Shown here: positions 40,356-63,016 of the stretch, piece by piece
How positions within the stretch are numbered: the stretch's first letter is position 1
Layout of the letters: each line of letters begins with the position of its first letter
Assembly (NCBI GenBank): GCA_045563015.1
Contig: JBJKUQ010000014.1
Span: 11,433-75,432, forward strand
Reading direction: 5' to 3'
Length of the DNA: 64,000 bases
From: Alphaproteobacteria bacterium
Lineage (GTDB): Bacteria; Pseudomonadota; Alphaproteobacteria; Methylaequorales; Methylaequoraceae
Position numbers and translations under genes: made by a program
The notes under the pieces: generated by a model
What the model was told of the DNA's origin: nothing
What the model saw: the letters and a program-made list of their open reading frames with translations, nothing else
Databases searched by the model: none

Positions 40356-41011
40356 TTTAAATTTAAAAAATATTTTTTATTTATTAAAGTTATAATTTCA
40401 GGTTCATTAGGGTTCTTTTCTATTTTTTTTCGTAATCTATAAACAAGAGATTCTAAAGTATGCGTCTCAAGAATTCTATTATGACCCCAAACCTCTTTTA
40501 AAATTTCTGCTTTACTATGACCAGATCTACTTCTTGTTAGAAATTTTAAAAAGTTATTTTCAAGTTCTGTTAATTGTATTGATTTTTTATTTTTATTGTC
40601 AAAAAGTTGAGACTTCTCAAAGTCGTAGAAAAAATTACCTATCTTAATATAACTTTCTTTTTCTTTATCTATTATTGAAATCTGGCTTAACTTTTTTTTA
40701 AAGTCCTTAAAATTCATTGGTTGAGATAGAATATCAAAACCATCTAAATCAAAATTATCTAAAATTTTCTTTGGTGCTGTAACAAATATTTTACAATTTA
40801 TTAATTTAACATTCATTAGCTTAGATAAATCATTAAAAAATGATTTTGAGTTTATGTTTATTAAAATTATTTCATCACTTATGGGTAATTTAATGTCGCA
40901 CAAACCCTTTAATTTCGTTAATGAGAAACCTTCATCTATTAGTAATTCAGAAATTTCTTCAAGAAAAAAATTTCCTTCACATATAGCTATAACATTTTTT
41001 TTGATTAACAT
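40352..41011 (-). CDS. OmpR-type winged-helix regulator with a degenerate (pseudo-)receiver domain
   Basis: 219 aa. The C-terminus LTELENNFLKFL...EILKEVWG...THTLESLVYRLRKKI is a Trans_reg_C fold. The N-terminal receiver-like fold lacks the acidic pocket (ICEGN instead of DD) and has N at the phospho-acceptor position (IILININ). Confidence 0.65.
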   Translation of the reverse strand: MLIKKNVIAICEGNFFLEEISELLIDEGFSLTKLKGLCDIKLPISDEIILININSKSFFNDLSKLMNVKLINCKIFVTAPKKILDNFDLDGFDILSQPMNFKDFKKKLSQISIIDKEKESYIKIGNFFYDFEKSQLFDNKNKKSIQLTELENNFLKFLTRSRSGHSKAEILKEVWGHNRILETHTLESLVYRLRKKIEKNPNEPEIITLINKKYFLNLN

Positions 41012-45794: not shown

Positions 45795-46795
45795 TTAAAA
45801 AATATGACATTTTTTTACAAGAAAAAATTTCTCACAACAATATTTTTCTTTTTTATGGTGTAAATCAAGGAAGAATTGACGAATGTGTAAATTATGTAAA
45901 AAAAGATATTAAAGAAAAAGATCCTAATACATATTTTATTTATATCTATTCTGATGATTTAAAAATTAAGAATTTTAAGCAAATCCTAAGTGAAACTAGT
46001 CAAGATGATATTTTTGGAAAAAAATGTTGTATAATTTTTTTACTAACTGAAATCAAACAATTAAATGAAATACAAAAAGCACTTCAAGAAGAAAGTCTAA
46101 AGTTTAATTCTCTAATATTTAAAACTTCTCAATTACCTAAAAAAAATTTATTTAGAACTCTTTTTGAAAAATCGCAGGATAAAATTTGTGTGCCCTGTTA
46201 TGAGGAAACTTTAATGGAAAAAAAAACATTAATCAGAAATTACCTTTTAGACGAACAAATTAAGATTAGTGAGAATCAAATTGAATATTTTTCATCGAAT
46301 TTTTCTAATGATAGGTTAGAAATTATCAATGAATTAAAAAAATTAGTTATATTTTTTAAAGAAAATAGTGACCCAAATCTTGATTCATTAAATGTAATAT
46401 CAGATTCATTTGATAGTGATATGAATAAGTTGACATTTGGCTTAGCTTCCAGAAATTTTGAATCTTTTTGGTCGGAATATTCCAAATTAGTTGGATCGGA
46501 AATTAACGAGATCCGTCTAACAACCTTTTTTTTACAACACTTTGAAAAATTACTAAATGTTCATAATAAAATTTCAGAGGGTTTTTCAACTTTTAATGCA
46601 TTGAAATCTCTGAACCCACCAATCTTTTTTAAACACGAAAAAGAATTCCTTTATCAAATAAATTTATGGAGTAAAAATCAAGTTCTAAGAGTAATTAAAA
46701 ATCTCCACGCTTGCCAAGTCTCTATTCTTAAAGGTAATAATTCATCTAAATCTTTTTTTTTATATCAAATCACAAAGATATTCAATTTTTCTTGA
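45791..46795 (+). CDS. holA: DNA polymerase III delta subunit
   Basis: 334 aa. Size, position after leuS-lptE, and a weak HolA pattern (..IFLFYG..). Confidence 0.7.
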   Translation: MIKKYDIFLQEKISHNNIFLFYGVNQGRIDECVNYVKKDIKEKDPNTYFIYIYSDDLKIKNFKQILSETSQDDIFGKKCCIIFLLTEIKQLNEIQKALQEESLKFNSLIFKTSQLPKKNLFRTLFEKSQDKICVPCYEETLMEKKTLIRNYLLDEQIKISENQIEYFSSNFSNDRLEIINELKKLVIFFKENSDPNLDSLNVISDSFDSDMNKLTFGLASRNFESFWSEYSKLVGSEINEIRLTTFFLQHFEKLLNVHNKISEGFSTFNALKSLNPPIFFKHEKEFLYQINLWSKNQVLRVIKNLHACQVSILKGNNSSKSFFLYQITKIFNFS

Positions 46796-47390
46796 TAATC
46801 TTATTTAAAAAAAACTTGATCCTTTTTTTTATTACGTGCAACTTTTGATTCGTATCAATTTTAATTGATATATATTTTTTAAATAAAGTTACTTGGTGGT
46901 TTTGTGTCATTAATATTTTGAAAAACTTATCCAAAGTCATTCCTTTTCTATTTAAAGCCCTTTTTTTTTGAATTATATCATTAACATGTAAATAGATAAT
47001 ATAATCAAAGTCTTGGTGTAATTTTTTTTCAAACAATAACGGTATATCAAAAAAAATGATCTTTTTTTTTTCATTTGATTCAATAAAATTATTCTTTAAT
47101 TTATTTAAAAAAGGATAAATTAAATTTTCAAGTTTTAGAAGGTCTAAGTTATTTGAAAAGACATAATTGCCTAAATTATTTTTGTTAATTTTAGCTCCAT
47201 CAAGTAAGTTTGGAATTTTTTTTGAAAATAAATCTAATATTTTATTTTTTACAATTTCTTTTTCAAAAAGTTTTGAGACTTCTTTATCAGACTCAAATAC
47301 TTCATATCCCAAATCTTTTAAAATATTTGAGATTGTTGTTTTCCCAGTCGCAATCTTTCCAGTGATTGCAATTTTAATAGTTTTGTTCAC
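46782..47390 (-). CDS. coaE: Dephospho-CoA kinase
   Basis: P-loop IAITGKIATGKTT. The ORF is open to 47438, but that would overlap aroE by 65 nt. The GTG at 47390 gives the usual short N-terminus (MNKTIKIAITG). Confidence 0.85.
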   Translation of the reverse strand: MNKTIKIAITGKIATGKTTISNILKDLGYEVFESDKEVSKLFEKEIVKNKILDLFSKKIPNLLDGAKINKNNLGNYVFSNNLDLLKLENLIYPFLNKLKNNFIESNEKKKIIFFDIPLLFEKKLHQDFDYIIYLHVNDIIQKKRALNRKGMTLDKFFKILMTQNHQVTLFKKYISIKIDTNQKLHVIKKRIKFFLNKIIKKN

Positions 47391-48201
47391 AAATTTCTTT
47401 TGCCTTATTGATATCTGATTTTGAGAGTAAAACATCAAACCACAAGTTGAAAGCGATTGCTGCTTGATTTACAAGCATCCCTAGACCATTTGTGGTCCTG
47501 TATCCTCTGCTTCTAAATTCTTTTAGTAGATTCGTTTCTTTCGGATTATAAATTATGTCACTAAACAAGACATTTTTATTTAAATTTTCAAAATCAAAAT
47601 TAAATTTATCTTCTTTTTTCATTCCTAAAGAACTTGTATTAATTATCAAGTCGATATCATTCTGTGGTGCCATCTTTTCCCATTTTGTGAAAAAGATCTT
47701 AGAGTGCCTCTGTTTAAATTTTTTAATTACATTGATTGCTTTTTCTGAGGTTCTATTTGTTATATGAATATTATTAACCTTGTGATTAATTAGCTCAGAA
47801 ATAATACCAAGACTAGCACCACCAGATCCAATTAAAAAAATATTTTTTTTTTTTAAAGAAAATCCTAAATCTAATTTTATTGCTCTAACAAAACCTTTGC
47901 CATCTGTATTTTCTCCATAAACTTTTCCATTTCTTAAAAACACTGTATTAATAGCGCCACTTTCTAATGCATTTTTCGATACTTCATCAATAAAATGAAA
48001 TATTTTTTTTTTGTAAGGTAGTGTAATATTAATACCTAAAATTTCTTCAGTTTTGATTTTTTCAATAACGTTGTATAATTGGTTCTCTTCAATTTCTTTT
48101 TTGTTATAAACAGCATTTATTTTATATTTTTTTATCCAAAAATTATGAATTATTGGGGATAATGAATGCTTAATTGGTTTGCCTATTACAAATAACTTCA
48201 T
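47374..48201 (-). CDS. aroE: Shikimate dehydrogenase
   Basis: 275 aa. ..GKPIKHSLSP.IHN.., ..NITLPYK.., ..GSGGAS.. NADP motif. Confidence 0.9.
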   Translation of the reverse strand: MKLFVIGKPIKHSLSPIIHNFWIKKYKINAVYNKKEIEENQLYNVIEKIKTEEILGINITLPYKKKIFHFIDEVSKNALESGAINTVFLRNGKVYGENTDGKGFVRAIKLDLGFSLKKKNIFLIGSGGASLGIISELINHKVNNIHITNRTSEKAINVIKKFKQRHSKIFFTKWEKMAPQNDIDLIINTSSLGMKKEDKFNFDFENLNKNVLFSDIIYNPKETNLLKEFRSRGYRTTNGLGMLVNQAAIAFNLWFDVLLSKSDINKAKEICEQNY

Positions 48202-48800
48202 ATAACTTCACTTTTAAATTTTTTCAAAAAACCTTTAAGCGGAAAACCTAATATTGTTTCTAAATCGCCTTCCTTTATATCAATAAAATTATGTCTTTTA
48301 TTTTCTTCAATCTTATAGGATCCAACAGAATTTAAGGCAGTACTTTTGTTTTGATTTAAATAATTTTTTAAAATTTCTTTTTTTTTTTTTTTAAAGAAAA
48401 GTTTAGCGTATTTTAGTTCTTCATAAAAAAAAATATTTTTATTTATTACATGTATTGCGCTATATAAGAAGTGATCTTTTCCTACAAGAAATTTAAGGTT
48501 TTGAAGCGCTTCGTCTAAATTATTCGGTTTACTTAAAATTTTATTTTCACATACAAGAATTTGATCTCCACTAATAATGAGCTTGTTTGTATATTGTGAT
48601 AAAATAGATTCCGCCTTTAACTTTGCTAATTTTTTTACCAATGATATTGGGTCTAAGTTTTTGAATTTCTTTTTTGTTCTTTCTTCATCTACATTATGTT
48701 TTTCAATAATAATATTTTTAAAATATTTACTTAGCATTTTTATTCTAGTTTCACTGGATGAAGCAAGGATAATTTGTGGACTTTTTTCTAAATTTGTCAT
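48198..48800 (-). CDS. maf: Maf-family nucleotide pyrophosphatase
   Basis: 200 aa. ..IILASSSETR.., ..ISGDQIL.., ..GSYKIE... Contains a 15-nt homopolymer (KKKKK). Confidence 0.85.
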   Translation of the reverse strand: MTNLEKSPQIILASSSETRIKMLSKYFKNIIIEKHNVDEERTKKKFKNLDPISLVKKLAKLKAESILSQYTNKLIISGDQILVCENKILSKPNNLDEALQNLKFLVGKDHFLYSAIHVINKNIFFYEELKYAKLFFKKKKKEILKNYLNQNKSTALNSVGSYKIEENKRHNFIDIKEGDLETILGFPLKGFLKKFKSEVI

Positions 48801-49076
48801 ATTTGATAATTCTATTAACTCTTTTCACTTTTTTCTAACAAATAAGTAACAGTCTAATTATGTTGATAAGTAATTAGTAATATTAATCGTTCTTTTTAAC
48901 ATTTTCTTTATAAACAATTTTTTACTAATAAAATCTCTCTTTTTTTGTTTTTATAACATTTTATCAACAGAGTTTTACAATAATTAACTGTTAATATAAT
49001 GTTAAAATTAAATTATTAACTTTCTTAAGCGTACAACAACAACAACAACCTTATATATATATGTTATAGATGTATT
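48801..49076. other. Candidate chromosomal replication origin (oriC) in the maf|hemE divergent spacer
   Basis: Longest spacer in the window (276 bp). The flanks coaE-aroE-maf / hemE-hemH..rho match the conserved alphaproteobacterial origin neighbourhood. Two TTATCAACA 9-mers (1 mismatch to TTATCCACA) sit in inverted orientation at 48861-48869 (-) and 48961-48969 (+). There are also very AT-rich blocks, (CAA)5 at 49034-49048 and a (TA)n run at 49052-49062. Confidence 0.5.
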
Positions 49077-50081
49077 ATGGAAAACTTTATAACAAAGAAA
49101 AAAACACCTATCTGGTTTATGAGACAAGCTGGTCGTTATCTTCCAGAATATAGAAAATTACGAGCTAAAGAGGCCTCTTTCTTAGATATGTGCTTTAATA
49201 GTAAGTTAGCTGCTGAAATTTCTTTACAACCAATACGAAGATTTAATTTAGATTTTGTTATACTTTTTTCTGATATTCTTGTAATCCCACATGCTTTAAA
49301 TCAAAAAGTTGATTTTAAGGAAGGAATAGGACCTGTTTTAGATCCAATAACTTCTATAAAAGAATTAAATTTTAAAAATTTTAATCGTTGTTTAGAAAAA
49401 CTGAGTTCTGTTTTCGAAACAATTCAATTACTAAAAGAAAAAAAAAAGGAAAAAAAACTAATTGGATTTTGTGGAGGTCCTTTTACAGTTTTAACTTATA
49501 TGATTCAAGGTAGAACATCTAAAACGCATTTAAAAATTAAGAGTGATATAAAATCGTCTAGAAAAAAGTTATTAGAAATTTTAGAGGTTTTAATTGAACT
49601 TTCTGTACATTATTTGAATCGTCAAATTAAAGAAGGAGCTGATTTGGTAATGGTTTTTGATTCTTGGGCAGGAATTTTAGATAATGAAGATTATGAAGAT
49701 TTTGTTATCAAACCAAATAAAAAAATTCAAGAATTAGTAAAAAGAGAAAATCCAAAAATACCTATGATTTTCTTTCCAAGAAATTCTGGAGAAAAAATAT
49801 TTGAATTTTTAAAAAATGTCAAATGTGACATATTGTCTATTAGTCAAAATTATCCTTTAAAATTATTAGAATTAGCCAAAAAAAAAAATATAATTTTACA
49901 AGGTAACCTTAATCCAGTTTCTTTATTAAATGGTGGAAAAAATCTAGATAAAGAAATAAAAAAAATAATGGAAGATTTTAAAAATAATAAACATATATTT
50001 AATTTGTCACATGGGGTTTTACCACAAACTCCAATTGAAAATGTTGAAAGAACAATTAAACAAGTAAGAGAGTTCAAATGA
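49077..50081 (+). CDS. hemE: Uroporphyrinogen decarboxylase
   Basis: 334 aa. PIWFMRQAGRYLPEYR signature. Confidence 0.95.
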   Translation: MENFITKKKTPIWFMRQAGRYLPEYRKLRAKEASFLDMCFNSKLAAEISLQPIRRFNLDFVILFSDILVIPHALNQKVDFKEGIGPVLDPITSIKELNFKNFNRCLEKLSSVFETIQLLKEKKKEKKLIGFCGGPFTVLTYMIQGRTSKTHLKIKSDIKSSRKKLLEILEVLIELSVHYLNRQIKEGADLVMVFDSWAGILDNEDYEDFVIKPNKKIQELVKRENPKIPMIFFPRNSGEKIFEFLKNVKCDILSISQNYPLKLLELAKKKNIILQGNLNPVSLLNGGKNLDKEIKKIMEDFKNNKHIFNLSHGVLPQTPIENVERTIKQVREFK

Positions 50082-51088
50082 AACCCAGTGGACATGTATT
50101 TATCCCAAAATCTAAACTAGGGGTTTTAATGATAAATCTTGGAACTCCAGAAAATACAAATTATTTTTCAATGTGGATTTATTTAAGGGAATTTTTAAGT
50201 GATAAAAGAATAATTGAAGTAAGTAGACTCATTTGGTACCCGATTTTGTATTTAATAATATTAGTTTTTAGACCGAAAAAGTCAGGAAAACTCTACGAGA
50301 AAATTTGGGATAAAAAAAAAAAACAATCTCCACTTAAAGTTCATACAGAAAATATTGCAAAGAAGTTAAGCAAAATATTTAAAAACAAAAATACTATAGT
50401 AACTTTTGCAATGAATTATGGTTATCCAAAAATAAAAACAGAGATGGCAAAATTAAAAGCTAAAGGTTGTGAAAAAATATTGATTTTTCCAATGTATCCT
50501 CAATACTCAGCGACAACAGTAGCTTCAGTTACTGACAGAGTTTTTGAGTATTTGAAAATAACAAGATGGCAACCGACAATAAGAATAGTTCCTCCATACT
50601 ATGATGATGAAAATTATATTTTAGCTTTAACGGAAAGTATAAATAAAAAAATAAAAGAAAAAACAGCTATTACTATATTATGTTCTTTTCATGGAATACC
50701 AAAAAAATATTTTTTTAAAGGAGACCCCTATCATTGTCATTGTGCAAAAACAGTAAGACTTTTAAATGAAAAATTTAAAAAAACAAAAATTAATTTTGAC
50801 ATATCTTTTCAATCACGATTTGGACCACAAGAATGGTTAAAACCATATATGAATGAAAAAATGGACGAAATTTTATCCAAAGGCAAAAAAAAGTTAACTA
50901 TAATTGCCCCCGGTTTTTCTGTTGATTGTTTAGAGACCTTAGAAGAAATTAAAATACAAGGTGATGAAGATTTTATTGAAAAAGGCGGGGAAGACTTTAA
51001 TTACATAGAATGTTTAAACGATTCTAAACCGGCAATAAAAATGTATAAAAATATAATTAATAGAGAATTAAAAGGATGGTTAAATTGA
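50078..51088 (+). CDS. hemH: Ferrochelatase
   Basis: 336 aa. ..GVLMINLGTP.., ..FPMYPQYSATT.., ..SFHGIP... Confidence 0.95.
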   Translation: MKPSGHVFIPKSKLGVLMINLGTPENTNYFSMWIYLREFLSDKRIIEVSRLIWYPILYLIILVFRPKKSGKLYEKIWDKKKKQSPLKVHTENIAKKLSKIFKNKNTIVTFAMNYGYPKIKTEMAKLKAKGCEKILIFPMYPQYSATTVASVTDRVFEYLKITRWQPTIRIVPPYYDDENYILALTESINKKIKEKTAITILCSFHGIPKKYFFKGDPYHCHCAKTVRLLNEKFKKTKINFDISFQSRFGPQEWLKPYMNEKMDEILSKGKKKLTIIAPGFSVDCLETLEEIKIQGDEDFIEKGGEDFNYIECLNDSKPAIKMYKNIINRELKGWLN

Positions 51089-51091
51089 GCG

Positions 51092-51520
51092 ATGGATTAT
51101 AATTTTATTAAAGCCTTTCATATAATTTTTTTTACAACCTGGATGGCAGGTCTATTTTATTTACCACGAATTTTTGTTTATCATTCTAATGCTAAAAAGA
51201 ACTCTTCTGAATACAAGGTATTTGTAATAATGGAAAGAAAGCTTTTACTTTATATAATGAATCCTTCAATGATATTGACCTGGATATTAGGACTTTTACT
51301 TATTTTAAATATTCAAGAATACAAAACAAACTGGTTTACTATCAAAGTTCTTTTGGTGTTTTTAATGTCTGTTTTTCACATATATTGTGCCAAAGTAAGA
51401 AAGGATTTTGAAAAAAATAAAAATAAAAAAAGCCATAAATTTTACAGGCTCATAAACGAGATTCCAACAGTGCTATTTTTTCTAATTGTTTTGACAGTAG
51501 TTTTTAAACCATTTAATTGA
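51092..51520 (+). CDS. hemJ: Protoporphyrinogen IX oxidase HemJ
   Basis: 142 aa, 4 TM. KAFHIIFFTTWMAGLFYLPRIFVYH signature. Confidence 0.85.
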   Translation: MDYNFIKAFHIIFFTTWMAGLFYLPRIFVYHSNAKKNSSEYKVFVIMERKLLLYIMNPSMILTWILGLLLILNIQEYKTNWFTIKVLLVFLMSVFHIYCAKVRKDFEKNKNKKSHKFYRLINEIPTVLFFLIVLTVVFKPFN

Positions 51521-51575: not shown

Positions 51576-52832
51576 ATGCATTTAAAAGATCTTAAATCAA
51601 AAAACCCCTCAGAACTCTTAAAAATTGCGGAAGAGTTAAAAATTGAGAATGCAGGTACTCTAAGAAAACAGGATATGATTTTTTCTATACTGAAGCAAAT
51701 GGCGTTAAATAACGATGCAATTTTTGGTGAAGGTGTTTTAGAAATATTACAAGATGGTTTTGGTTTTCTTCGTTCTCCAGACGCTAATTATCTACCTGGA
51801 CCTGACGATATTTATGTTTCTCCATCGCAAATTAAACAAAATAGTCTTCGTACAGGGGATACAGTTGAAGGTGAAATGAGGTCTCCAAGAGAATCAGAGA
51901 GATATTTTGCTATTACAAAAATTGAAAAAATTAATTTTGAATCTGTTGAAAAAACAAAGCAAAGAATCAATTTTGATAACTTAACACCTTTATATCCTGA
52001 CGAAAAATTAAAAATGGAAATTGAAAACCCTATGGAAAAGGATATCACCCATAGAGTTATGGACTTAATCGCCCCTTTAGGTAAAGGCCAAAGGGCATTA
52101 ATTGTAGCTCCCCCAAGAACAGGAAAAACAGTCATGCTACAAAATATTGCTCATTCAATTACTTCCAATCACCCTGAAGTTTATTTGATAGTTTTATTGA
52201 TAGATGAAAGGCCAGAGGAAGTGACAGATATGATTCGATCTGTTAAAGGAGAAGTTGTATCATCAACTTTTGATGAGCCTGCTAGTAGACACGTAGCAGT
52301 TTCAGAAATGGTTATTTCAAAAGCAAAGAGACTTGTTGAACACAAAAGAGATGTAGTAATCTTGTTGGACTCTATAACCAGATTAGCTAGAGCATATAAT
52401 ACTCAAATTCCCAGTTCTGGAAAAGTTTTAACTGGTGGGGTTGATGCGAACGCTTTGCAAAGACCAAAAAGATTTTTTGGAGCTGCAAGGAATATTGAAG
52501 AAGGTGGCTCTTTGACAATAATTGGGACAGCATTGGTAGATACAGGTTCAAGAATGGATGAAGTTATATTTGAAGAATTTAAGGGGACAGGTAATTCAGA
52601 AATAATTCTTGATAGAAAGCTATCAGATAAAAGAGTATTTCCATCAATTGATGTTACTAAATCAGGAACCAGAAAAGAAGAATTACTCGTAGCCAAAGAT
52701 GATTTATCAAAAATGTGGATTTTAAGGAAAATACTTATGCCAATGGGAGTAAATGATTCCATGGAATTTCTAATCGAAAAAATTAAACATTCTAAGAATA
52801 ATGGTGATTTTTTTGAATCAATGAAATCTTAA
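51576..52832 (+). CDS. rho: Transcription termination factor Rho
   Basis: 418 aa. GFGFLR RNA-binding motif, Walker A PPRTGKT, ..[10 protein letters not shown]... Confidence 0.97.
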
Positions 52833-59794: not shown

Positions 59795-60808
59795 TTATTT
59801 TGAAGGAACTAGAGTATATAACAAAACTTTTTCTTTTAAAGTGCCAGCAATATTTTCTGCTTTCTTTCCACTTCCAGTAAAAAGATCAGCCCTATTTACG
59901 CCCTTTATTGCAGAGCCAGTGTCTAATGCAAGCGCAGGTATTGATAGATTTCTGTCTATAAGTTTTATTAGCATTGGAATACCTAAAGGGTAATAGATTT
60001 TATCAATTGCCATACTAATATTTTCAACTAAATTAACTCCATAAGAACCAACTGGACCTTTTTTCTTAGGGCCCTTATTTTTAATCTGAAAGAAAATATA
60101 TCTCTTATTTGTATTAAGAATTTTCTCAACTTTTATTGGGTTTTCATATAGAAATTTTTTTATTGTAAATAAATTTATTTCTTTTCCTGACAACTCACTT
60201 TCTTTTAACAATTTTCCGATTGAGCTATACTTTTCATTATTATTGCCACCATAAGTTATTTTTATTTTTTTTTTGTTTGGAAGAATTCCTATTCCAGAAC
60301 CTTGGATTTGTAGAAAGAATAACTCTATTTTATTGTCGGTCCAAAGCAAAACATCTTCGTTATGGAAAGAATTTTCAATTTTATTTCTTGGAATATTTTT
60401 ATATTTTTCATTATATTTAAGAATTGGAAACTTAAAAAATTTATCTCTTTTAAAAGATACTTTGATTTCTGGCTCATAATATCCAGTAAGCAAGCCAATT
60501 GAGTCTGATAGTTTTTTTATTTTGAAATTTTCTAAAATAAAATTTTTTTCGGATTTGTTTGAATCTTTTATCTCTTTGCAAATATTTTTCCAGCTTTTCT
60601 CTGTTCCAAAATCTGGGTAACTTGCGTGTGATTTTAGATTTATAATAAGCCGTTCACTACAGTTACTTTTTAATAAATTATAGAATTTTTTGATATCATA
60701 ATTAATGAAATTATTATTTTTAAGTTCATCAACTAACTTGGAGATTGTATTTGAAAAAGAATTATTAAAAAAAAGAATGCAAAAAATAAAAAGTAATTTT
60801 TTTTTCAA
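59795..60808 (-). CDS. mltA: Membrane-bound lytic murein transglycosylase A
   Basis: 337 aa. Signal peptide, ..TGYYEPE.., ..LQIQGSG.., 3D-domain ..ALDTGSAIKG..RADLFTGSG. Confidence 0.85.
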   Translation of the reverse strand: MKKKLLFIFCILFFNNSFSNTISKLVDELKNNNFINYDIKKFYNLLKSNCSERLIINLKSHASYPDFGTEKSWKNICKEIKDSNKSEKNFILENFKIKKLSDSIGLLTGYYEPEIKVSFKRDKFFKFPILKYNEKYKNIPRNKIENSFHNEDVLLWTDNKIELFFLQIQGSGIGILPNKKKIKITYGGNNNEKYSSIGKLLKESELSGKEINLFTIKKFLYENPIKVEKILNTNKRYIFFQIKNKGPKKKGPVGSYGVNLVENISMAIDKIYYPLGIPMLIKLIDRNLSIPALALDTGSAIKGVNRADLFTGSGKKAENIAGTLKEKVLLYTLVPSK

Positions 60809-62681: not shown

Positions 62682-62827
62682 ACGATAAATACGATAAAAT
62701 TAATTTCCTTAAATAGAATTATATCTAGCATAATTAGAAATACTACTAAAATTTCTTTAAATAAATCTAATTAAAGATTAACCCTCATTAGAAATGTTAA
62801 ATTCAGTAATTGATGTGTTTTAATAAC

Positions 62828-62902
62828 TGGAGCGGGAAACGAGATTCGAACTCGCGACCCTCACGTTGGCAACGTGATGCTCTACCACTGAGCTATTCCC
62901 GC
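62828..62902 (-). tRNA. tRNA-Gly (anticodon GCC), CCA encoded
   Basis: The minus-strand sequence GCGGGAATAGCTCAGTGGTAGAGCATCACGTTGCCAACGTGAGGGTCGCGAGTTCGAATCTCGTTTCCCGCTCCA folds as a cloverleaf. It has a 7-bp acceptor stem, anticodon stem TCACG/CGTGA with loop TTGCCAA, and a T-arm GCGAG-TTCGAAT-CTCGT. Confidence 0.95.
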
Positions 62903-63016
62903 ATTTTAGGCAGTTTAAATATACTTAAATAAAAATTAATTACAATAATATAACTTAAGAATAATTTTTCTAAATAAACAATTTAAATTTACTAAATTAA
63001 TATCATATAATAAATT

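Follow-up and report, generated by a model that had tools for sequence, protein, structure and literature searches.

The spacer between maf and hemE as the probable chromosomal replication origin of an uncultured marine alphaproteobacterium of the TMED127/Methylaequorales order

Comparative analysis places the chromosomal replication origin (oriC) of a streamlined, uncultured marine alphaproteobacterium (probably TMED127/Methylaequorales) in the spacer between maf and hemE, with a probability that we estimate at about 0.86. The spacer (276 bp, 18.5% GC) occupies positions 48801-49076 of the 64,000-nucleotide stretch of DNA that was analysed (the window), which corresponds to positions 11433-75432 of contig C14 in a draft genome (G000) of 1.106 Mb with 24 contigs and ~29% GC. 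A candidate oriC between maf and hemE had been put forward earlier from the letters of the window; this original prediction is now supported by GC skew, synteny, enrichment of DnaA boxes and the precedent of hemE-linked origins. Such origins have been established or predicted in Caulobacter, Rickettsia, Wolbachia and relatives, and the criteria employed here were taken from the same source, after Brassinga et al. 2002, beginning with adjacency to hemE and/or a COG1806 (DUF299) gene (PMC1914354). The start codon of hemE marks the end of the spacer, and of this pair hemE alone was found: the DUF299 model (PF03618) gave no match in this 76%-complete draft, and maf therefore directly abuts the origin.

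Divergent transcription can mimic a skew minimum; we therefore used strand-corrected values, splitting coding-strand bias from replication bias via G and C at third codon positions (GC3). The raw cumulative GC-skew minimum of the 97-kb contig C14 lies at 60-61 kb, and the spacer at 60233-60508 of the same contig. To the left of the spacer, GC3 skew was +0.162 in minus-strand genes and -0.044 in plus-strand genes; to the right, it was +0.189 in plus-strand genes and -0.025 in minus-strand genes. The fitted replication skew shifted from -0.110 on the left to +0.112 on the right, which is the change of sign sought at an origin, at a resolution of ~2 kb or more. C14 carries the sole strong origin-type (V) switch among the 24 contigs (Z = 8.1), a value reached in 0 of 1000 gene-order permutations; elsewhere, 21/24 contigs are monotonic, and C15 and C19 show weak switches (Z = 4.0 and 3.4). 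A skew minimum at some other place, named in the original prediction as evidence that would count against it, was not seen, as far as a draft genome allows.

The same polarity was found in the relatives. Split at its own spacer, each of seven genomes from five genera showed origin polarity (7/7; Z = 7.2, 4.1, 2.6, 2.9, 1.6, 4.1 and 5.8), with the six further genomes, from four other genera, ranging from Z = 1.6 to 5.8. In one of these relatives (G036), the raw skew minimum across 260 kb coincides with the spacer.

Several observations weigh against this assignment. The change point that fits C14 best, at 58.2 kb, is 2 kb to the left of the spacer, which falls just outside the 95% support interval of 57.2-59.6 kb (delta chi-square 4.6); the offset depends on the short genes aroE and maf, with 56 and 32 informative sites. 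Free change points of the relatives, in which the skew is weak, lie 2-18 kb from the spacer on either side. The assembly is 76% complete and divided into 24 contigs, and dnaA, whose position relative to the site had been suggested as a check, sits on a different contig (C23:22808-24133). As to motifs, the spacer of the window lacks a perfect DnaA box, its best matches being just two boxes with one mismatch; the strongest DnaA-box cluster of the genome lies elsewhere, on C8, so that the spacer is not without a comparable region; and its own run of DnaA-trios, a motif required by the unwinding system discussed below, has decayed to TGTTATAGATGTAT, with no run of three, so that the canonical pattern is absent here.

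An origin close to hemE yet a few kb left of the spacer, or one in the unassembled 24% of the genome, with the C14 switch being a rearrangement, would agree with the incompleteness of the assembly, with the weaker origin-type switches on C15 and C19, and with best-fit change points 2 kb (G000), 8 kb (G036) and 18 kb (G019) to the left of the spacer. We regard it as improbable: the support interval holds no other non-coding gap or conserved box cluster, and the conserved box architecture is restricted to the spacer, the contig having no other true non-coding gap from 52.3 to 74 kb. Moreover, the best splits of two relatives (G015 and G022) fall on the opposite side of the spacer, so that there is no consistent offset. 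The switches on C15 (~7.5-12.5 kb) and C19 (~6.7 kb) are situated near contig ends (permutation p = 0.04 and 0.01), and neither coincides with a DnaA-box cluster; they may represent small inversions, acquired DNA or noise.

Placement of oriC in the spacer itself draws on its conservation. The order consists of one family of 42 fragmented genomes, from which 29 loci of 14 genera were available for comparison of the spacer. maf(-)/hemE(+) synteny was found in 29/29 loci, with spacers of 193-297 bp and hemE identities of only 52-61%. Together, the 29 spacers contain 42 DnaA boxes with at most one mismatch, compared to 3.4 +/- 1.9 in dinucleotide shuffles (12-fold), and 92 matches to TTWTNMACA, compared to 12.9. 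The positions of the boxes are conserved in the alignment of the relatives' spacers. The 5' part of the conserved core is formed by two minus-oriented boxes of the TGTTAATAA type, 11 bp apart (-45 and -33 relative to a CAA run), and a plus-oriented TTATYMACN box at exactly -21. After this last box come a 12-bp gap, A(CAA)5C, CCTTA and (TA)n, and at the hemE end (TAG)2-3(AAG) is followed by a box of the T(A/G)TGGATAA type that overlaps the hemE start. With its block structure preserved over 14 genera and its core over at least four families, the spacer is conserved to a higher degree than expected. Contigs end 0.1-2 kb from the hemE spacer in L014 (G017:C12), L085 (G358:C32), G013:C30 and G021:C1; assemblies may tend to break near this repeat-bearing region.

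By number of DnaA boxes, the spacer ranks second among 169 intergenic regions of its own genome, with two 1-mismatch boxes and four TTWTNMACA matches, which amounts to the several boxes looked for in an origin. The 1-mismatch box TTATCAACA occurs in 53 copies in 1.106 Mb and the perfect box in 19. About 0.013 copies of TTATCAACA would be expected in 276 bp, and the chance of two at a pre-specified site is roughly 1e-4. However, the genome has 34 clusters of at least two boxes (at most one mismatch) within 300 bp, so a pair of boxes alone does not single out an origin. The evidential weight is in the comparative data rather than in the two boxes on which the original prediction had drawn.

The region that outranks the spacer is an array of five DnaA boxes at C8:32372-32424, two of them perfect, with an exact 11-bp tandem period in which the motif TGTGGATAATA is repeated five times. 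It is composed of TGTTGATAA (once), TGTGTATAA (twice) and TGTGGATAA (twice), with TA after each, inside a 215-bp spacer of 15.8% GC that separates a divergent CBS-pair gene from the gene for an outer-membrane beta-barrel. Were this array the true oriC, the hemE spacer would be merely a DnaA-regulated divergent promoter. First rank among the 169 regions, low GC and divergent flanking genes would suit such a role, and a CBS-domain gene borders the predicted Wolbachia origin (PMC1914354). The C8 protein, though, is a small CBS-pair protein of 171 amino acids (a COG1253/TlyC-type model was not scanned); an origin-type skew switch is lacking throughout C8 (V-statistic Z = -0.9; monotonic at +0.059); and the array is missing from all four congeners and essentially from the whole family. 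Rejected on skew and non-conservation, the array is a highly improbable origin. It may instead serve to titrate DnaA in this lineage (a datA-like site) or be a promoter controlled by DnaA.

Two further box pairs were noticed on C14. At C14:88545-88612, in a 90-bp gap after dnaQ, there are two perfect TTATCCACA boxes, inverted and 59 bp apart; the gap lies 28 kb right of the spacer and 13 kb past the right end of the window, next to a 614-amino-acid open reading frame without an NCBIfam match. Because the genome has only 19 perfect boxes, chance is a very unlikely source of this pair, which probably marks a promoter regulated by DnaA or a site of DnaA titration. Within aroE, 650 bp left of the spacer (window 48132-48162), the boxes TTATCCAAA (+) and TTATCCCCA (-), with 1 mismatch each, are 22 bp apart.

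In the maf-proximal part of the spacer, two inverted TTATCAACA boxes (1 mismatch each) lie exactly 100 bp apart, at 48861-48869 on the minus strand, where the plus strand reads TGTTGATAA, and at 48961-48969 on the plus strand, as had been described. In relatives, the former has its counterpart in a convergent pair, TTWTNCACA-N8-TGTGNATAA, of which it makes up the right arm. The position of the latter is conserved, and relatives have TTATTAACA, TTTTCCACA or TGATCCACA there. Between them are two weak box-like sites on the plus strand that fit TTWTNMACA, namely TTTTTAACA at 48893-48901 (3 mismatches) and TTATAAACA at 48908-48916 (2 mismatches); relatives carry TTTTCCACA or TTATCAACA at these positions.

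Farther toward hemE, the 11-bp phased direct repeat GTTAATATAATGTTAA at 48990-49005 admits two readings, a pair of weak DnaA boxes in minus orientation (TGTTAATAA type) or a single TTAA-N7-TTAA site of the CtrA type (48991-49005). In relatives, the corresponding boxes occupy positions -33 and -45 relative to the CAA run. None of the 42 family genomes reached the cut-off of the CtrA model, whereas the Caulobacter control passed it. In a family without CtrA protein, the DnaA-box reading is favoured and control of the Caulobacter type by CtrA is unlikely. The TTAA-N7-TTAA match is the only one in this spacer, and its excess in the family is marginal (16 vs 7.4, z = 2.1), which falls short of the CtrA sites sought. 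A CtrA-gated origin was accordingly rejected on the absence of CtrA from the 42 genomes. The consensus for integration host factor (IHF), WATCAANNNNTTR, occurs 0 times in this spacer and once in the 29 spacers, compared to 1.5 expected, and likewise gives no sign of an IHF site.

The hemE-proximal part begins with the box-like TTATTAACT (3 mismatches) at 49013-49021 on the plus strand, which starts exactly 21 bp before the CAA run. This offset is fixed across lineages: a box with at most 3 mismatches is found there in 22/40 loci against a background of 2.7%, and one relative has a perfect TTATCCACA at the -21 position. The invariant, single-copy A(CAA)5C follows at 49033-49049 (plus strand), and then (TA)5 at 49052-49061, the counterpart of (TA)4-8 in relatives. 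No duplex segment of the spacer is less stable than the (TA)5 run, which, judged from the sequence, is likely to be the first-melting DNA-unwinding element. Next to it, TGTTATAGATGTAT (49062-49075, plus strand) is the decayed counterpart of the (TAG)2-3(AAG) DnaA-trio run of congeners. The last element, at 49076-49084 on the minus strand, is the box-like TATGGAAAA (TTTTCCATA on the minus strand, 2 mismatches), which overlaps the hemE ATG; congeners have TATGGATAA (1 mismatch) at this place.

AT-rich blocks suited to unwinding had also been cited in favour of an origin. The AT-richness is real, and an AT content above the genome average is expected of an oriC; it is nevertheless weakly discriminating and unremarkable for this genome. 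A GC content of 18.5%, compared to ~29% for the genome and an intergenic mean of 24.3%, makes the spacer the 40th lowest of the 169 intergenic regions. The (TA)n run is the least stable 20-mer of the spacer, but coding DNA close by has stretches that are just as unstable. Neither plain AT-richness nor duplex instability is therefore an informative discriminator in this genome.

The basal unwinding system consists of a DnaA box with at most 2 mismatches, a gap of 0-16 bp and at least 3 NAN trios (PMC8287927, PMC8235120). The trios are carried on the 5' tail, in the order 5'-(NAN)n-spacer-TGTGGATAA-3', and reversal of this polarity abolishes opening (PMC8287927, PMC8235120). Downstream of (CAA)n, a canonical module of this kind was found in 18/29 relatives, compared to 2.4 +/- 1.4 in shuffles, and in 0 on the opposite strand. 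In the relatives it takes the form 5'-(TAG)2-3(AAG) - 2 to 8 bp - T(A/G)TGGATAA-3' and overlaps the start codon of hemE; its TAG repeats match the consensus trio (3'-GAT-5'). Three congeners retain GTAGTAGTAG-ATA-TATGGATAA. In the window, the box TATGGAAAA has 2 mismatches to TGTGGATAA and is within the limit for a box, and (TA)5 at 49052-49061 provides the AT-rich tract expected beyond the trios; the (CAA)5 tract fits NAN but lies 27 bp from the hemE-start box.

The cognate DnaA (C23:22808-24133) was aligned to Bacillus subtilis DnaA (8btg). I190, K222 and E228 are retained, I193 is replaced with L and R202 with K, and there is a Tyr where B. subtilis has Asn187. In B. subtilis DnaA, N187 contacts (hydrogen-bonds) the central adenine of the DnaA-trio, and the residues in contact with single-stranded DNA are not universally conserved (PMC10721633). 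Alphaproteobacteria are not mentioned in the papers on the unwinding system cited here (PMC8287927, PMC8235120).

The (CAA)5 tract stands out in the conserved core. Runs of (CAA) with at least 4 units occur on that strand only here in the genome, and the 17-mer A(CAA)5C is single-copy in the 23 family genomes with an exact match, always 30-60 bp before hemE. The same block, again with maf on the opposite side, is also present in the families f187 (hemE ~40% identical) and f153 (hemE 38-39% identical) and in assemblies labelled 'Rhodospirillales', which brings the number of deep marine alphaproteobacterial lineages that keep A(CAA)5C to at least four. The original prediction had listed (CAA)5 together with a (TA)n microsatellite upstream of hemE. 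Both repeats are present, but the label was wrong for a tract that is invariant and single-copy: to judge by its distribution, (CAA)5/(TA)n is a conserved core element and not a slippage-prone microsatellite.

What (CAA)5 might do was considered in terms of trios. As the middle base of a trio, A and C are effective, DnaA needing a primary amine, and T or G are poor (PMC10721633). The middle base of plus-strand (CAA)n is A, A or C in every register. The strand with the correct polarity for the upstream plus box carries (TTG)n, with T or G in the middle. Polarity and the middle-base rule therefore exclude (CAA)5 as canonical trios for the nearest upstream plus box. Nor did (CAA)5 keep to any one triplet register with the hemE-proximal box, the three registers being split 10, 5 and 4. 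Candidate roles for the tract are a distal or register-independent DnaA-trio array, a part of a second unwinding module, and a stretch of the leader or promoter of hemE.

A tentative proposal, whose chances we place well below even, is that A(CAA)5C is a previously unrecognised functional element of the origin, a phase-independent array for binding of DnaA to single-stranded DNA, shared by TMED127, the two families with hemE 38-40% identical and the 'Rhodospirillales' group. Together with the module of (TAG)n plus box, it would form a two-sided unwinding core. In the proposed geometry, (CAA)5 would face that module across (TA)n at a fixed 12 bp from an oppositely oriented box.

The promoter and 5' leader of hemE, merely inside or beside the origin, are a serious alternative for the (CAA)5-CCTTA-(TA)n-(TAG)n block, to which we would give a little less than an even chance; it contests the role of the module only and leaves the location of the origin untouched. 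A TATA tract resembling a -10 element, for example, could be followed by an unstructured CAA/UAG leader that helps translation without a Shine-Dalgarno sequence. The block is always directly upstream of a start codon, that of hemE in all TMED127-type, f187 and f153 loci, and in Caulobacter the hemE promoters lie within the origin, Cori, as well. In G066, (CAA)5 with its preceding DnaA boxes is found 44 bp upstream of asd instead of hemE, and in a closed relative, G245, the best skew switch within the 240 kb examined falls away from the asd locus. A general expression signal would nevertheless hardly be single-copy wherever it is present, with no other (CAA) run of at least 4 units on that strand. 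A scan with the sigma-70 consensus found no promoter using the block, and total matches were at chance (5 vs 3.6 +/- 1.9); a sigma-70 promoter using the (CAA)n/(TA)n block was set aside on this result, although the scan carries little information. Further, the distance of 21 bp between a DnaA box and the repeat is constant among lineages in which hemE is only 38-40% identical, and the pattern of (TAG)n plus box is strictly polar, as an unwinding module demands.

The two asd loci, compared to see whether (CAA)5 accompanies DnaA boxes or hemE, have the following make-up and do not separate the two cases. In G066 (L080; family f26, ~45% GC), C214:1271-1380 contains the tandem boxes TAATCCACA-C-AATTCACA, 4 bp, A(CAA)5C and AT-rich DNA. 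In G245 (L246), a three-box cluster, one box being perfect, lies upstream of asd at C1:169926-170430, with no CAA run; this genome has no hemE, and its best skew switch in the 240 kb lies ~95 kb from asd.

From the observed gene order, motifs, motif conservation and skew polarity, we infer the binding of DnaA, the site of melting and any part played by (CAA)5 as follows. DnaA would bind the mostly weak, positionally conserved TTWTNMACA boxes spread over the spacer and would then oligomerise toward its hemE-proximal end, where the duplex would open at the (TA)n run. In most relatives, the (TA)n run is flanked by the trio/box module on the hemE side and by (CAA)5 on the other side, with a plus-oriented box 12 bp upstream of the invariant tract. 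Bidirectional replication would then proceed co-oriented with the divergent coaE-aroE-maf and hemE-hemH-hemJ-rho genes.

Gene identities around the spacer were assigned by NCBIfam and agree with the gene order read earlier from the sequence: coaE-aroE-maf on the minus strand, the 276-bp spacer, and hemE-hemH-hemJ-rho, followed by xth, on the plus strand. On the left flank, coaE (46782-47438), aroE (47374-48201) and maf (48198-48800) are transcribed away from the spacer (models TIGR00152, TIGR00507 and TIGR00172). On the right flank are hemE (49077-50081), also transcribed away from the spacer, hemH (50078-51088), hemJ (51092-51520) and rho (51576-52832), matched by TIGR01464, TIGR00109, TIGR00701 and TIGR00767. 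The spacer had been called the longest non-coding stretch of the window, and this is true after larger apparent gaps were checked: 121-945 and 40356-40853 are filled by open reading frames, and 62682-63016 contains a tRNA-Gly. Rfam detected no known RNA in the spacer, this tRNA-Gly being its sole match in the window.

TMED127/Methylaequorales is an abundant, transcriptionally active and uncultured order of ocean methylotrophs, represented only by fragmented assemblies (PMC12542740). An affiliation with SAR11/Pelagibacter, which the 29% GC might suggest, was rejected in favour of TMED127. A located origin offers an anchor for ordering the contigs, helps to interpret strand bias and permits growth-rate estimates from the peak-to-trough coverage of metagenomes. 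The hemE-linked origin persists here in a deep alphaproteobacterial branch without CtrA, in a draft with no DUF299 gene found, which implies that the hemE linkage predates the regulatory overlay of Caulobacter and is the more robust of the two. The trio module and the strictly conserved (CAA)5 are also a cheaply testable substrate for the opening of alphaproteobacterial origins by DnaA.

Among known origins, close counterparts of the spacer are Cori of Caulobacter crescentus and the origin of Rickettsia prowazekii. Both are directly upstream of hemE and AT-rich, with mostly imperfect DnaA boxes, a GC-skew shift and diverging housekeeping genes. In Caulobacter, maf, aroE and coaE lie just beyond the boundary gene. 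The original prediction had named these three genes as the neighbours of Cori opposite hemE. The boundary gene next to Cori is COG1806/DUF299 (PMC1914354). In the window, by contrast, maf abuts the origin, and no DUF299/COG1806 gene was found in the draft. The spacer also differs from Cori in its size (276 bp vs >400 bp), in the absence of CtrA from the 42 family genomes, with the single TTAA-N7-TTAA match, in having no IHF consensus site, in that dnaA is not nearby, and in its invariant (CAA)5, which has not been described for Cori.

With the predicted origins of Wolbachia, Ehrlichia and Anaplasma, located between hemE and a CBS-domain gene (COG1253), the spacer shares the in-silico criteria of hemE adjacency, DnaA boxes, AT content, conservation and skew shift (PMC1914354), and in several of those lineages CtrA sites are likewise few or absent. 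Here, however, the boundary gene is maf rather than a CBS-domain gene, and in most relatives the box array runs into a module of the DnaA-trio type that overlaps the hemE start.

The likeness to the basal unwinding system of B. subtilis, Helicobacter pylori and others (PMC8287927, PMC8235120, PMC10721633) is in the pattern, polarity and adjoining AT-rich tract found in 18/29 relatives; the five (CAA) repeats are also close to the usual length of a trio array. Unlike in that system, the box of the relatives overlaps a start codon, and the copy in the window is without a trio run. (CAA)5 is 23-37 bp from the hemE-proximal box, outside the 16-bp rule, and a canonical trio for the nearer plus box would need the opposite strand. 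The proposed origin is ordinary in kind, of the hemE-linked type recognised in silico, with one additional conserved core element.

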